Below are positions 3,484 to 51,468 of a DNA stretch of 64,000 bases, piece by piece. A model generated the notes under the pieces. The model was not told the origin of the DNA. It saw only the letters and a program-made list of their open reading frames with translations, and searched no databases. The translations under genes were made by a program, and so were the position numbers. How positions within the stretch are numbered: position 1 is the stretch's first letter; each line of letters opens with the position of its first letter. Source of the DNA: Promethearchaeota archaeon (GTDB lineage: Archaea > Asgardarchaeota > Lokiarchaeia > Sigyniarchaeales > SOKP01); NCBI GenBank assembly GCA_019894715.1, contig JAGXOA010000259.1:225-64224 (forward strand). The letters run 5' to 3'.

Positions 3484-3734
3484 ATCAAAATTAAATTTGT
3501 TAATATTGTTTATAAAAATAGATCATTTCTAAAAATTATTTTCTTTTTAGAATAAAATATTATTTCAATTGTTTTTTGAAAAAGTACAAAAATAATTAAA
3601 CATTCTATAAGTTGAGATTGTTTATCTTTTATTGTTAAAGTAGATGCATTTGTCATAATCGTTTTCTCTATTTTCAATTAGATTTATTAATGGGAATAAA
3701 ATTGATTTGAATATATTTAAAGAAAAGAGATCTT

Positions 3735-7746: not shown

Positions 7747-7760
7747 TTTTTTTTTTTTTT
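7747..7760 (+). terminator. T14 run, likely archaeal oligo-T terminator for 7401..7730
   Basis: Fourteen consecutive T beginning 17 nt after the stop codon. Confidence 0.5.
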
Positions 7761-7813
7761 ATTTCAACTGTTTGTTGAAATTCTATAAAAATTTATAATT
7801 AATTATAAAAATC
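7761..7813. repeat. 53-nt hairpin repeat, copy 1 (ATTTCAAC-tgttt-GTTGAAAT followed by two TATAAAAAT-like boxes)
   Basis: 48/53 identical to 30116..30168, with the first 22 nt identical. Perfect 8-bp stem. Confidence 0.8.
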
Positions 7814-7972
7814 TAAATGATTTCAATCAAAAAATTGTTTTTCTTAACATTATAGATGATATAGAAAAACTAGAATTGTCAACATAAATTATCGGAGAAG
7901 GATTGAATTATTATATAGTTCATACTCATCATGAAAATAAAAAAAAAAAAGATTAAACTTTTTCATAATATC

Positions 7973-13280: not shown

Positions 13281-13326
13281 TCGAACTACCACGCCCTAAA
13301 GGACGTGGCTTTCTGGTGGAAGACGG
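13281..13326 (-). mobile_element. 46-bp single-hairpin IS200/IS605-derived mini-element
   Basis: In element orientation it reads TTAC|CCGTCTTCCACCAGAAAGCCACGTCC-TTTA-GGGCGTGGTAGTTCGA|. 8-bp stem (one G.U) with a 4-nt loop. The left arm matches the left ends and the right arm matches the right ends of the larger copies. Confidence 0.7.
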
Positions 13327-13906
13327 GTAAATATCAAATAGAAAATTCAAAGCTTAACTTTTTAATAATTTTGGCTTTAATAAAGAAGATCTTAAAAGAA
13401 ATTAATAAAAATTATTAACAATACAGAAAAATCCAATAATTAATATAAACTACTTTGATATCTCTTTCTTGAGATTTTTTATGTGATAATTATCTTTAGA
13501 AATTTTTAATCTATTTAAGTTAGAAGGTTTGAATTTAGAATATGGAATAATAATACTTGATATAATAAATTCAAAGCTAATTGAATTTGATATCTCATCA
13601 ATATTCACTTTTAGGTGATAATTCTTATTTTTTACTTTTGAACTCATAAATCATCTATTTTTTTTTAAAAACATATAATTCATAAGTATTTAAAGAAAAA
13701 TTAGAATTTTTTAAGTTCTTTCAAATATAGTTTCATAAAGTATCTTTGGCTTTTGCACAAATCTACAATTTAATTTTCTATTCTCCTTTAATTACTAGGC
13801 GATAATATCAATTTATCTAATTTCTGATAAATATATCTACTTTAAGATGATAATATTAAAAAAAAAAGAATAGTCTTTTTTAATATGAAGATAATTAGGT
13901 TTTTTC

Positions 13907-24692: not shown

Positions 24693-24737
24693 TTGAACTA
24701 CCACTACCTAAAGGATGTGGCTTTCTGCTTTGATATT
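24693..24737 (-). mobile_element. 45-bp single-hairpin IS200/IS605-derived mini-element
   Basis: In element orientation it reads TTAC|AATATCAAAGCAGAAAGCCACATCCTTTAGGTAGTGGTAGTTCAA|. The left part equals the left end of the 51293 element and the right part equals the right-end terminus. Confidence 0.7.
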
Positions 24738-24785: not shown

Positions 24786-24992
24786 TTAGAAATCTGTTGA
24801 TTTTTTTTTCCTTAATCTAAAAAACAAGAATACAATATTGATTAAGATAAGAATTATGATCACAGTAATTTGAAAGGGAAGTTTATCCGCAATAACTGAA
24901 ATTCCTGACATAGTTAATAGAAGGTTTGATGTCATGTCTCTTATGAATTCACTCTGCTCCATAGAAGATTCTAATTTATCATCAATACTCAA
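24786..24992 (-). CDS. hypothetical 68-aa tail-anchored membrane protein (start lies in IS-derived sequence)
   Basis: Track ORF with a TTG start. The first about 7 codons (SIDDKLE) fall in sequence shared with the MITE-like copies at 48560..48600 and 43470..43490. C-terminal TM ITVIIILILINIVFLFF followed by RLRKKK. Confidence 0.25.
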   Translation of the reverse strand: MSIDDKLESSMEQSEFIRDMTSNLLLTMSGISVIADKLPFQITVIIILILINIVFLFFRLRKKKSTDF

Positions 24993-25108
24993 AATAGAGT
25001 TTTTCCTCTATTTAAAAATCGGGTGTGATATCGATTAGTGATTTTTTTATCATTTTATAACAAAATTCATCCCATCCCTAAAGGAATGGGTTTTCTTTTG
25101 TTTATATG
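24971..25108 (-). mobile_element. left-end half of an IS200/IS605-type MITE (no matching right end)
   Basis: About 85-90% identical by eye to 43470..43597, including GTGTGATATC.ATTAGTGATTT and the LE hairpin CCCATCCC-TAAA-GGAATGGG (25071..25090). Similarity ends at CATAT next to TTAT. Confidence 0.7.
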
Positions 25109-29016: not shown

Positions 29017-29163
29017 GGTGTTAACACCGTTTAAAAATCTCTATATTCTTCAGTAAATATTGAAAAAATTTAAATCAAGAGATAGTCCTAATCTAATAAT
29101 AAAAGAAATGGAAGATTTAATAATTATTTTATGAAAACATATTTTAATAGATATCATTATTAA

Positions 29164-29330
29164 GTGACCTACACACGGCCTAAAGGCCGTGGCTTCCTAC
29201 GAGTGCACAATCGCTTCTAGTATGGATTGGTCTGTATGTCGTAGAAAACCATCCTAATGCTTTTGGAATGATTCCTCGTTCACAGAGGATTTATGCGATA
29301 GGAAATCAAAGGTATCCTTTATATCAAGGA
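29164..29330 (-). ncRNA. putative omega-RNA (reRNA) scaffold relic of the deleted TnpB element
   Basis: Position (last part of tnpB plus the sequence up to the RE hairpin) corresponds to where TnpB guide-RNA scaffolds are encoded. Locally much more GC-rich than the surroundings. Expression unknown. Confidence 0.35.
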
Positions 29331-29460
29331 AATATACCATAATATTAATCGCTGAATTAAGATCTCGATCAATATGACTTCCACAGTCATAATTAATAAT
29401 TCTCTCGAAAATTGGTCTTTTTTTAGCCTTTCCACATTTACAACAGACTTGCGTTGTCTT
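29254..29460 (-). pseudogene. tnpB: tnpB (IS605 OrfB) C-terminal remnant, 68 codons, no start
   Basis: Translated by eye as KTTQVCCKCGKAKKRPIFERIINYDCGSHIDRDLNSAINIMVYF..., i.e. the TSQxCxxCG zinc-finger and DRDxNAAxNI RuvC-III motifs of TnpB. Confidence 0.75.
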
Positions 29461-29574
29461 ATTACCATGCTCAATTCACCCCCTTCCTAAAGGGAGGGGT
29501 CTTCTTGAACAATTATGATAAAAATTGTTCAAAATAAGAGAATTTAAATAGTTAAATAAGCAAATAATCAATAT

Positions 29575-29973: not shown

Positions 29974-30115
29974 AAACCATACAATTTATTTAAATTCTAA
30001 TATATTCATAATAAATTAAATTAATAACATAATTCGCTAACATTTACATATATTTCCATATTTTTAATCGATATTATAAGAAAATAATGTAATATGTTTA
30101 TTAAAAAATTATATT

Positions 30116-30168
30116 ATTTCAACTGTTTGTTGAAATTTTACAAAAATCTATAATTATCTATAAAAATC
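30116..30168. repeat. 53-nt hairpin repeat, copy 2
   Basis: 48/53 identical to 7761..7813. Lies between the stop of the mutase large subunit (30268) and the start of the small subunit (29973). Confidence 0.8.
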
Positions 30169-30267
30169 AAAAAATTATCACCCTTCCGTGATTAAAATTT
30201 GTAAATTCTTCAATCCTTTTTTTTTTCAATAAATCTAAGAGAAAATTGAAATTGTAATTTTCTAAAT

Positions 30268-43387: not shown

Positions 43388-43597
43388 TTGAACTACCACT
43401 ATCTAAAGGAAGTGGATTCATAGTCCCTAAACCTCAACAAGAATCTTAGACACTACAGGATAGTTCTCTACCCTAATATCATTAATATTTTCCTCTATTT
43501 AAGAATAGAGTGTGATATCAATTAGTGATTTATGCAATATTTTTTTTTAACAAAATTCATCCCATCCCTAAAGGAATGGGCTTTCTTTTATTATATG
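43388..43597 (-). mobile_element. 210-bp MITE derived from an IS200/IS605 (TnpB-type) element: LE + RE/omega-RNA 3' part
   Basis: RE hairpin 43396..43415 and terminus TTCAA (43388). 43410..43480 is homologous to the region after the tnpB pseudogene (37340..37400). LE hairpin 43561..43580. Flanked by TTAC (43598..43601, minus strand). Confidence 0.8.
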
Positions 43598-48424: not shown

Positions 48425-48640
48425 TTAAACTACCATCACCTAAAGGTGTTGGATTCGTAATTCATCGAAACGAACTTAATGGATTACTTGAGTTTTACAG
48501 TTTCTCCAAACGCTTGACATCCCTAGTCCCTATGGTAGTATGATGATGAATTATTGGTTATCTAATTTATCATCAATATTTAATATAGAGTTTTTCCTTT
48601 TTTTAAAAATAGAGTGTGAGATAGATCAGTGATTTTTTTA
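48425..48640 (-). mobile_element. IS200/IS605-derived MITE-like element, variant with a distinct GC-richer core and no LE hairpin
   Basis: RE hairpin 48433..48452 (CCATCACC-TAAA-GGTGTTGG) with terminus TTTAA. 48560..48640 is homologous to 24971..25045 and 43470..43535. The core 48455..48545 is unique. Confidence 0.65.
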
Positions 48641-50930: not shown

Positions 50931-51292
50931 TTTTGAAAAACTATTGTATCAGAATTTTATATATAGACAATTATATTCTAAAAATTAATCCGAATATTAA
51001 TTCTTTTTCATTTCACTAAATATTATGTTTAAAACGTTTTTTTATTATTATTTGATTATTTTTAAATAATATCAAAAATATTTTCAATGAAAATAGAAAT
51101 CTATAATTGGAATAATTTAAAATATAGGTCTGGTTTTTGTTTATATTTATCATTGAAAGAATAATCACCACCCCAATTCATAATATCTTCAATATTATAT
51201 ATGAGCTCCAATAAAAACCCAAAATTTATTTTTTGATATATATTGAAAATTTTAAAACCTAAACTTTTTCTAATAATTTCTTTTTTTTTGTC

Positions 51293-51468
51293 CATATTGA
51301 AGCAGAAAGCCACATCCTTTAGGGTGTGGATGAATGCATATAAAATACCTATTTATTAATTCTTCTCTGTTCTTATCTTTAAATATAAAAAACACATTTT
51401 ATACTTAAAATACTTCGAACTAATACCTTAGAATTGATACCTACTACCTTTAGGTAGTGGTAGTTCAA
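51293..51468 (+). mobile_element. 176-bp IS200/IS605-derived MITE (LE hairpin + RE hairpin) with an internal TATA motif
   Basis: LE CATATTGAAGCAGAAAGCCACATCC-TTTA-GGGTGTGG (hairpin 51310..51329). RE CTACTACC-TTTA-GGTAGTGG (51441..51460) with terminus GTAGTTCAA at 51468. Confidence 0.8.
51378..51385 (+). promoter_or_regulatory. TATA box (cTTTAAATA) inside the MITE, facing the right end and the sir2 fragment
   Basis: Same CTTTAAATA core as the six gene promoters listed. Confidence 0.35.

Follow-up and report, generated by a model that had tools for sequence, protein, structure and literature searches.

Single-hairpin mini-elements in a Lokiarchaeota genome: probable core-deleted derivatives of IS608-like elements

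Introduction

The DNA analysed here is a 64-kb stretch (hereafter the window) of a metagenome-assembled Candidatus Lokiarchaeota genome with a GC content of about 25%, together with DNA beyond the window end, including part of locus L019; about 72 kb of the genome was sampled in all. The genes of the window are ordinary metabolic ones, including a methylmalonyl-CoA mutase cluster, MaoC, CobO and a radical SAM protein; one tRNA is also present. Two flanking proteins have homologues labelled Promethearchaeota or Lokiarchaeota, and one of these, a protein of a Candidatus Lokiarchaeota archaeon (locus tag KGD63_14240), is a 100% match, which identifies the host as an Asgard archaeon rather than a bacterium. 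The subject of this study is a pair of mini-elements, m13 and m24, which are both intergenic, lie 90-140 nt downstream of plus-strand genes and stand out as GC-rich islands. Their ends resemble those of IS608, a member of the IS200/IS605 family from Helicobacter pylori, whose left cleavage site is abbreviated CL in the following.

13281..13326, minus strand: mini-element m13, 46 nt, with the sequence CCGTCTTCCACCAGAAAG-CCACGTCC-TTTA-GGGCGTGG-TAGTTCGA
13327..13330, minus strand: TTAC tetranucleotide flanking m13, the presumed left cleavage and target site, outside the element and at a position that fits the CL grammar of IS608
24693..24737, minus strand: mini-element m24, 45 nt, with the sequence AATATCAAAGCAGAAAG-CCACATCC-TTTA-GGTAGTGG-TAGTTCAA
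24738..24741, minus strand: TTAC tetranucleotide flanking m24, preceded by a T8 run

Results

Mini-element m13 begins with a left linker of 18 nt, the last four of which form the guide AAAG; a hairpin with a completely paired stem (CCACGTCC-TTTA-GGGCGTGG) and the right-end tail TAGT-TCGA follow. In m24, a 17-nt left linker likewise ending in AAAG is followed by a chimeric hairpin (CCACATCC-TTTA-GGTAGTGG), of which six of the eight stem positions are paired and two are mismatched, and by the tail TAGT-TCAA; the right terminus is thus TCGA in m13 as opposed to TCAA in m24. The predicted DNA hairpin energies are -7.7 kcal/mol for m13 and -3.8 kcal/mol for m24, and the stability z-scores of the two mini-elements (-1.5 and -1.2) are indistinguishable from those of shuffled sequence. 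A repeat finder groups both copies into one family with 91% identity over 33 nt, while their linkers are wholly different and their flanks unrelated.

A preliminary description of this DNA had placed two mini-elements at exactly these coordinates and had interpreted each as a left-end arm fused to a right-end arm through a single hairpin. Both points hold: the coordinates are exact, the left linker with its AAAG guide is joined to the right tail TAGTTCAA, and the constituent motifs occur far more often than expected by chance. Hereby, GTGGTAGTTCRA is found five times in the window (0.18 expected from shuffled sequence), CAGAAAGCCAC three times (0.26 expected) and the loop motif CCTTTAGG 11 times (1.26 expected).

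The ends of the window elements follow the arrangement of cleavage sites and guides that is known from IS608:

Left cleavage site (CL): TT(T)AC, 17-18 nt 5' of the stem in the window elements; TTAC, 19 nt 5' in IS608
Left guide (GL), directly 5' of the stem: AAAG in the window elements; AAAG in IS608
Directly 3' of the left hairpin: ATGAAT in the window elements; ATAC in IS608
Right guide (GR), 5' of the right hairpin: GAAT in the window elements; GAAT in IS608
Right cleavage site (CR): TAGT-TCAA with cleavage 8 nt 3' of the stem in the window elements; TCAA, 10 nt 3' in IS608

Thus, the flanking TTAC and the terminal TCAA correspond to the IS608 cleavage sites, in agreement with the earlier proposal that the mini-elements keep both of them. 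Among 15 informative left ends, flank and guide are combined as TTAC/AAAG (eight times), TTAT/AAAA (five times) or TTAT/AAAG (twice), so that the fourth bases of flank and guide vary together, as predicted by the guide-target pairing of IS608 (Fisher p = 0.007). For IS608 the pairs A+16:T-3 and A+17:T-4 are documented; a further pair, C-1:G+19, we infer from the GL/CL and GR/CR sequences. Since guide and target covary according to the IS608 rule, the insertions were made by an IS608-type mechanism and, judged by their end sequences, m13 and m24 are IS608-like derivatives of the IS200/IS605 family.

The preliminary description had also cautioned that the left boundary might lie further out, based on a TTC-T8/9 stretch shared between the flanks of m24 and of the 176-bp element introduced below. 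This caveat can be set aside: T runs of at least eight occur 76 times in the window and TTTTTTAC 21 times, and in 16 of the 17 left ends (window and fetched loci) TT(T)AY is found at 17-18 nt from the stem with unrelated sequence further out, while TTAY has a background frequency of only 0.022 per position. Because T runs are this frequent and TT(T)AY keeps a constant distance, the left boundary is placed directly after TTAC.

The closest parent-type for m24 is a non-coding element of the kind described as palindrome-associated transposable elements (PATEs):

51293..51468, plus strand: E51, 176-bp two-hairpin non-coding PATE

Its left end reads CATATTGAAGCAGAAAG-CCACATCC-TTTA-GGGTGTGG-ATGAAT and its right end CTACTACC-TTTA-GGTAGTGG-TAGTTCAA. 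When the left and right parts of E51 are fused in silico across CCTTTAGG, the product is identical to m24 at 42 of 45 positions, which corroborates the earlier assignment of the two halves of m24 to the two ends of the 176-bp element. Moreover, the stem mismatches of m24 fall on exactly the two positions at which the 5' arm of the left hairpin of E51 (CCACATCC) and the 3' arm of its right hairpin (GGTAGTGG) are non-complementary. Such a coincidence reads as the signature of a deletion between directly repeated loops, and chimeric stems with mismatches also occur in mini-elements of two other loci (L001 and L013). The hairpin of m13 is fully paired, of the left type and followed by the right tail, so that its junction would lie at or after the foot of the stem. 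Both mini-elements have a non-coding length and a single near-terminal palindrome between the element's own 5' and 3' terminal sequences, as terminal-only PATEs do.

Unlike all other copies, which are flanked by TTAC or TTAT, E51 itself has TGTC at its left flank (51289..51292), while its guide is still AAAG; this copy was probably immobilised by mutation of the flank.

Seven further decayed IS605-type elements were found in the sampled DNA by hairpin scanning and repeat analysis. Apart from E51, these are:

43388..43597, minus strand: B43, complete 210-bp two-hairpin non-coding PATE
24970..25108, minus strand: A25, orphan left end with TTAT flank, guide AAAA and hairpin CCCATTCC/GGGATGGG, no right end nearby
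about 13830..13870 of L019, about 4 kb past the window end, minus strand: orphan left end with TTAT flank and AAAA guide, no right end nearby
48425..48640, minus strand: C48, 5'-truncated element without the left hairpin, with an interior common to A25 and the right end GAAT-CCAACACC-TTTA-GGTGATGG-TAGTTTAA
36990..37429 (start approximate), plus strand: D37, frameshifted C-terminal TnpB pseudogene (Pfam PF07282, E = 4.5e-12)
29163..29517 (approximate), minus strand: F29, internally deleted element with a TnpB zinc-ribbon remnant (PF07282, E = 3.4e-8)

The left end of B43 comprises TTAC, linker, AAAG, CCCATTCC-TTTA-GGGATGGG and ATGAAT, its right end GAAT, CCACTTCC-TTTA-GATAGTGG and TAGTTCAA. The TTAT/AAAA combination of the A25 and L019 left ends represents a compensated variant of TTAC/AAAG. 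In both D37 and F29 the right end is immediately preceded by a TnpB remnant. In D37 the pseudogene is followed by AAAT-CCACTATC-TTTG-GGTAGTGG-TAGTTCAA, and F29 joins a left hairpin (CCCCTCCC...) to the final ~45 TnpB codons and a divergent right end, GAAG-CCACGGCC-TTTA-GGCCGTG-TGTAGGTCAC. Since the other copies have the TAGTTCAA tail instead, a second IS605-type subfamily is present.

In E51, B43 and a TnpB-carrying element on a metagenome contig (L017, see below), the left and right hairpins stand in direct orientation, without inverted terminal repeats or duplicated flanks. The features of classical miniature inverted-repeat transposable elements are therefore missing: there are no inverted terminal repeats and no target-site duplication, and the ends are asymmetric (TTAC|CCGT... 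or TTAC|AATA... versus ...TCAA|).

Besides its left end, A25 holds about 80 nt of left-proximal interior that is common to C48 and B43 (24970..25049, 43457..43536 and 48561..48640). This segment, which contains a small palindrome (TAGAGGAAAAACTCTA), could be the counterpart of the second stem-loop that follows the left hairpin of IS608 on its 3' side, or else a promoter or leader. At about 24790..24970 (minus strand), in the stretch that separates m24 from the left end of A25, an open reading frame (ORF) of ~58 codons (MEQSEFIRDMTSNLLLTMSGISVIADKLPFQITVIIILILINIVFLFFRLRKKKSTDF) resembles a small membrane protein. We also considered m24 as the right end of a larger element starting at the A25 left end, 365 bp away; this assignment was rejected, as the left half of m24 specifically matches the left end of E51 and m24 has its own TTAC. 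An unrelated intergenic repeat of 50-64 nt, found at 3544..3593, 7754..7817 and 30098..30172 and containing the palindrome TTATTTCAAC(T/A)GTTT(G/T)TTGAAA, may be a regulator-binding or promoter-associated motif.

A transposase that could act on these elements was not encountered. Among 10 ORFs, small ones or neighbours of the elements, that were scanned against Pfam there was no Y1_Tnp protein, the six-frame translations of the window and of the loci fetched to that point, with only ~72 kb of this genome visible, contain no HUH...Y motif, and a protein search returned no intact relatives of the window TnpB pseudogene.

The family extends beyond the two copies originally described. Scanning one genome per species (185,579 species) with the exact pattern yielded one further mini-element, in a Promethearchaeota metagenome-assembled genome, with TTAC at 18 nt and a mismatched chimeric stem. 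A looser scan of JGI metagenome contigs returned nine loci, namely six true mini-elements, two chance matches and one tandem hairpin array, while a scan of viral contigs with the mini-element pattern gave no matches. The chance matches (L011 and L018) were rejected because they lie inside long ORFs and their stems do not pair. Including those found in the flanks of other copies, the public-data scans gave 10 additional mini-elements, one in the Promethearchaeota genome and nine on six metagenome contigs, all of them with TT(T)AY at 17-18 nt. Three extra mini-elements lie in the flanks of the ascertained copies, as compared to two complete or partial parents.

Near-identical mini-elements are found at different loci on L015, L016 and L017. 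The last of these, a 5.9-kb contig, encodes an intact 381-aa OrfB_IS605 TnpB (PF01385, PF07282, PF12323) bounded by end hairpins CCATATCC-TT(C/T)A-GGTTATGG that differ at one loop base, their longest exact common run being ATCCATATCCTT (12 nt). Together with the TnpB remnants of D37 and F29, this intact gene between ends of the same type supports the assignment to the IS605-type family. Also on this contig are a further left end and three mini-elements whose hairpin is that of the TnpB element, and two of these mini-elements (at 944 and 1319) have a private linker, ATGTTCTTCTCAAA, and the tail TAAT in common, with unrelated flanks. L017 thus presents the configuration that is expected to yield mini-elements by repeat-mediated deletion.

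On L013, two mini-elements at 2985 (plus strand) and 4418 (minus strand) lie 1.4 kb apart in opposite orientation; they have the same chimeric stem CCCCTCCC/GGGCGTGG (six of eight pairs) and diverged linkers, which fits a deletion at the loop having occurred in each of two parental copies. The tandem array (L010, 535..643) comprises three hairpins, with the unit AAACTTAAAAR-CCTCCTYC-TTTA-GRGGGAGG-TAGTTTAA occurring twice around a different hairpin (CCCCATCC/GGGTGGGG); it has no TTAC at the usual distance and represents a compact multi-hairpin arrangement of a related subfamily.

Syntenic regions of relatives were compared. The MaoC-CobO intergenic region, which contains m24, measures 548 bp in the window as opposed to 145-208 bp in relatives with 82-90% MaoC identity, and these relatives lack the hairpin element; the ~24790..24970 stretch with the small ORF is also missing from them. 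For the protein neighbouring m13, the next relative is only 62-63% identical. F29 is missing between MeaB and the B12-binding gene in the relatives L007 and L008. Altogether, ~45 kb of syntenic DNA from Promethearchaeota relatives (L003, L004, L007, L008) contain no hairpin elements, compared to about nine in 72 kb of the window lineage. The comparison of orthologous intergenic regions, which had been put forward in the preliminary description as a check, hence gives a divided answer: since the syntenic regions of relatives are devoid of them, the elements are lineage-specific, whereas the intergenic DNA of the relatives is too diverged for exact empty sites to be defined.

The raw reads of this genome are SRR14373431 and SRR14373433, and its assemblies are ERZ27271168, ERZ27271183 and ERZ27271186. 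Across both mini-elements, identity to five further assemblies or samples from the same population is 99.99-100%, with m13 and m24 already in place and no polymorphism seen; m13 is identical in the independent assembly ERZ27271168 (L025), and m24 in L002 and L028. Several Logan short-read contigs break in or beside hairpins, L026 ending at window position 13302 (the m13 loop), L029 at 25085 and L002 at 25050. The break in m13 involves a flank-specific k-mer and could reflect either a minority haplotype or a fold-back sequencing artefact. The contrast between about nine element fragments in 72 kb and the element-free syntenic DNA of relatives indicates a recent burst of IS605-type elements in this Lokiarchaeota lineage, followed by rapid decay.

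Discussion

Taken together, m13 and m24 are probably terminal-only (core-deleted) PATEs that were formed by repeat-mediated deletion between two end hairpins. Hereby, a parent element, either TnpB-carrying or already a non-coding PATE of ~180-210 bp, would undergo single-strand 'peel and paste' transposition and insert on the 3' side of TT(T)AC. Its two subterminal hairpins would be in direct orientation and would have in common the CCTTTAGG loop or, in some subfamilies, nearly the whole 20-nt hairpin. RecA-independent slippage or recombination at these short direct repeats would then remove the core along with one hairpin copy, leaving TTAC, the left linker with its AAAG guide, one hairpin and the right tail TAGT-TCAA. 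According to the biochemistry of IS608, such a remnant would still bind one TnpA monomer and would possess a complete left cleavage module, with the right guide GAAT and one of the two hairpins gone. The mini-element would thus most probably be a scar that is inert or can be mobilised only very poorly, much like a solo long terminal repeat (LTR), and not a mobile unit of the kind formed by repetitive extragenic palindromes (REPs).

A precedent exists in Haloquadratum walsbyi, for which Dyall-Smith et al. (2011; PMC3119063) defined PATEs. There, complete elements of one strain are replaced at the same locus of the other strain by 52-bp terminal-only versions, the deletions having occurred at 19-22 bp direct repeats that hold the end palindromes (PMC3119063). 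The 'core del' product printed for HqIRS46 reads TCTAC AGATTAACAGGCAGAGTG CCTCGGGG CTTGA CCCCGAGG TACTTCAC (PMC3119063). Six strain-specific insertions of ISHwa23 are all of the 52-bp form, which according to the authors 'may indicate' mobilisation, a question that they left open (PMC3119063).

Several observations weigh against a deletion origin. The hairpin of m13 is of the fully paired, left-end type, and a parent with its GC-rich linker or stem was not found in the ~72 kb sampled, which leaves the deletion junction of m13 conjectural. No full-length parent or empty site is available for the m13 and m24 loci, the best relative having 90% MaoC identity and the assemblies of the same population being ~100% identical. 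The near-identical dispersed mini-elements on L015, L016 and L017, including the pair at 944 and 1319 of L017, fit repeated deletion and self-mobilisation equally well. Lastly, mobility of the 52-bp form was suspected by the Haloquadratum authors themselves (PMC3119063).

Such mobility was also part of the preliminary description, in which the mini-elements were likened to bacterial REPs mobilised by REP-associated tyrosine transposases (RAYTs), which are IS200-like enzymes. In this case the single-hairpin elements would be minimal substrates on which an IS608-type TnpA acts in trans, and would spread as units; left cleavage might, for instance, rely on the one hairpin with its guide, and TCAA might be recognised in a non-canonical or trans-supplied manner. 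In favour of this possibility, the mini-elements retain TTAC at the correct distance, the AAAG guide, a hairpin and, in m24, the terminal TCAA, other genomes and metagenomes hold ten more copies, the three L017 copies lie within 5.9 kb and include the two that have their linker and tail in common at unrelated sites, extra mini-elements are about as common in flanks as complete or partial parents, and all six strain-specific ISHwa23 insertions are of the short form, for which mobilisation was suggested (PMC3119063). The IS608 enzyme, however, sets requirements that the mini-elements can hardly satisfy. The TnpA dimer binds two hairpins, of which the mini-element has one, and the guide 5' of each bound hairpin recognises the cleavage site belonging to that hairpin; loss of GR or CR abolishes robust synaptic complexes. 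By the published pairing rule, the sole remaining guide, AAAG, matches TTAC and mismatches TCAA at two of three pairing positions, so that left cleavage would be plausible and canonical right cleavage would not. With AAAG in the place of the lost right guide GAAT, and with a single TnpA-binding hairpin left, canonical excision should fail. Furthermore, the stems of the m24, L001 and L013 mini-elements are imperfect and chimeric, m13 ends in TCGA instead of TCAA, the completely different linkers imply that m13 and m24 are not copies of each other, and no TnpA was seen in the window or at any fetched locus. The two stem mismatches of m24 are what would be expected of a fresh left/right chimera rather than of a selected hairpin, and, the loop being the only shared homology, recurrent deletion there produces the same sequence at many loci even if the mini-elements never move. 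We therefore regard mobilisation of the single-hairpin elements in trans as rather unlikely, and consider it improbable that chimeras of 45-50 nt are genuine IS608-type TnpA substrates spreading on their own in Asgard and other archaeal genomes. If they were, they would constitute the smallest known transposable units and, as a living intermediate, would link the ends of IS200/IS605 elements to dispersed hairpins of the REP kind.

Two explanations that do not invoke a transposon scar were weighed as well. The position of both GC-rich copies closely downstream of plus-strand genes could point to hairpins co-opted by the host as transcript 3'-end, stability or terminator signals, or as protein-binding sites. 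Archaeal termination, however, is oligo-T-based and not hairpin-based, no T-tract follows either hairpin on either strand, and a terminator scan found no terminator-like site at either mini-element. Their hairpins are no more stable than shuffled sequence, Rfam gave no match at gathering or relaxed thresholds, the stem of m24 is mismatched, and the orthologous intergenic region of relatives at the m24 locus lacks such a hairpin; a host function is thus very doubtful. A chance resemblance or local duplication without transposon origin might be suspected from the presence of only two copies in the window and from the AT-rich, repeat-prone nature of the genome. This idea is effectively refuted by the motif counts far above shuffled expectation, by the recurrence of the same layout on unrelated contigs and by the TnpB remnants adjoining sister right ends, and we give it practically no credence. 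In addition, the flanks of m13 and m24 are unrelated, and the genuine chance matches, L011 and L018, are set apart by their location in long ORFs and their non-pairing stems.

With core deletion as the preferred origin, isolated GC-rich hairpins in the AT-rich intergenic DNA of Asgard archaea become readable as scars of IS605-type elements, which is of use for annotation. Moreover, natural test variants that differ in stem (paired or mismatched), guide (AAAG or AAAA) and terminus (TCAA or TCGA) are now at hand for the question of Dyall-Smith et al. (2011), i.e. whether terminal-only PATEs are mobilised. The cleavage-site and guide grammar of IS608, including its predictable guide-target covariation, is conserved from Helicobacter through haloarchaea to Asgard archaea.

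Comparison with known systems

With IS608 (ISHp608) of Helicobacter pylori the window elements have in common the TTAC, AAAG, GAAT and TCAA sequences of CL, GL, GR and CR, the AT after the left hairpin, a left site far 5' of its own hairpin and a right site close 3' of its own hairpin, and TnpB as passenger gene. They differ in the distances of the cleavage sites (17-18 and 8 nt versus 19 and 10 nt); in addition, no tnpA was found near the window elements, the window copies are non-coding or pseudogenised, and the mini-elements have one hairpin and no GR.

REPs are short extragenic hairpins with a conserved tetranucleotide 5' of the stem, which are recognised by a Y1 HUH enzyme related to the IS200 TnpA. 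Tens to hundreds of them accompany a domesticated RAYT gene that is present only once and is flanked by REPs, and an inverted REP pair has been proposed as the mobile unit. The mini-elements resemble them in being short extragenic hairpins with a conserved tetranucleotide 5' of the stem. Unlike the bacterial REP/RAYT systems, they reside in an archaeal host, are low in copy number (two in 64 kb, and one of 185,579 species genomes matching the pattern), are demonstrable chimeras of two insertion sequence ends and are not accompanied by any RAYT or TnpA that we could see. The analogy is weak, and the REP-like mobilisation originally proposed is disfavoured by the missing Y1 transposase, the loss of the GAAT guide, the single remaining hairpin and the mismatched m24 stem. 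Solo LTRs offer an analogy only: there too, recombination of directly repeated ends leaves a scar with one terminal repeat, and the scars are dispersed, alike and immobile, whereas element class and enzymology are different and the repeats are LTRs of several hundred bp instead of hairpins of 8-20 nt.

The terminal-only PATEs of Haloquadratum (HqIRS46, ISHwa23; PMC3119063) show the same layout as m13 and m24, i.e. a target oligonucleotide, a left linker with guide, one palindrome close to the terminus and a short tail on the right. They also are ~50 bp in length, reside in an archaeal host and derive from IS605-type TnpB-carrying elements or PATEs, and HqIRS54 (Table S9, PMC3119063) follows the same grammar as the window elements (TTAC...GAGAAAG-hairpin-ATGAAT and GAAT...TCAA). 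The haloarchaeal host is GC-rich, in contrast to the AT-rich Lokiarchaeota (Asgard) host of m13 and m24, which have shorter, 8-bp stems and a TTTA loop. The shared repeat amounts to ~8 nt in E51-type parents and to 19-22 nt in Haloquadratum, and the in-situ deletion that we infer for m13 and m24 was seen directly in Haloquadratum, between two strains. Terminal-only elements are new for Asgard archaea, and m13 and m24 add a host to an element class known since 2011 rather than revealing a new kind of system.

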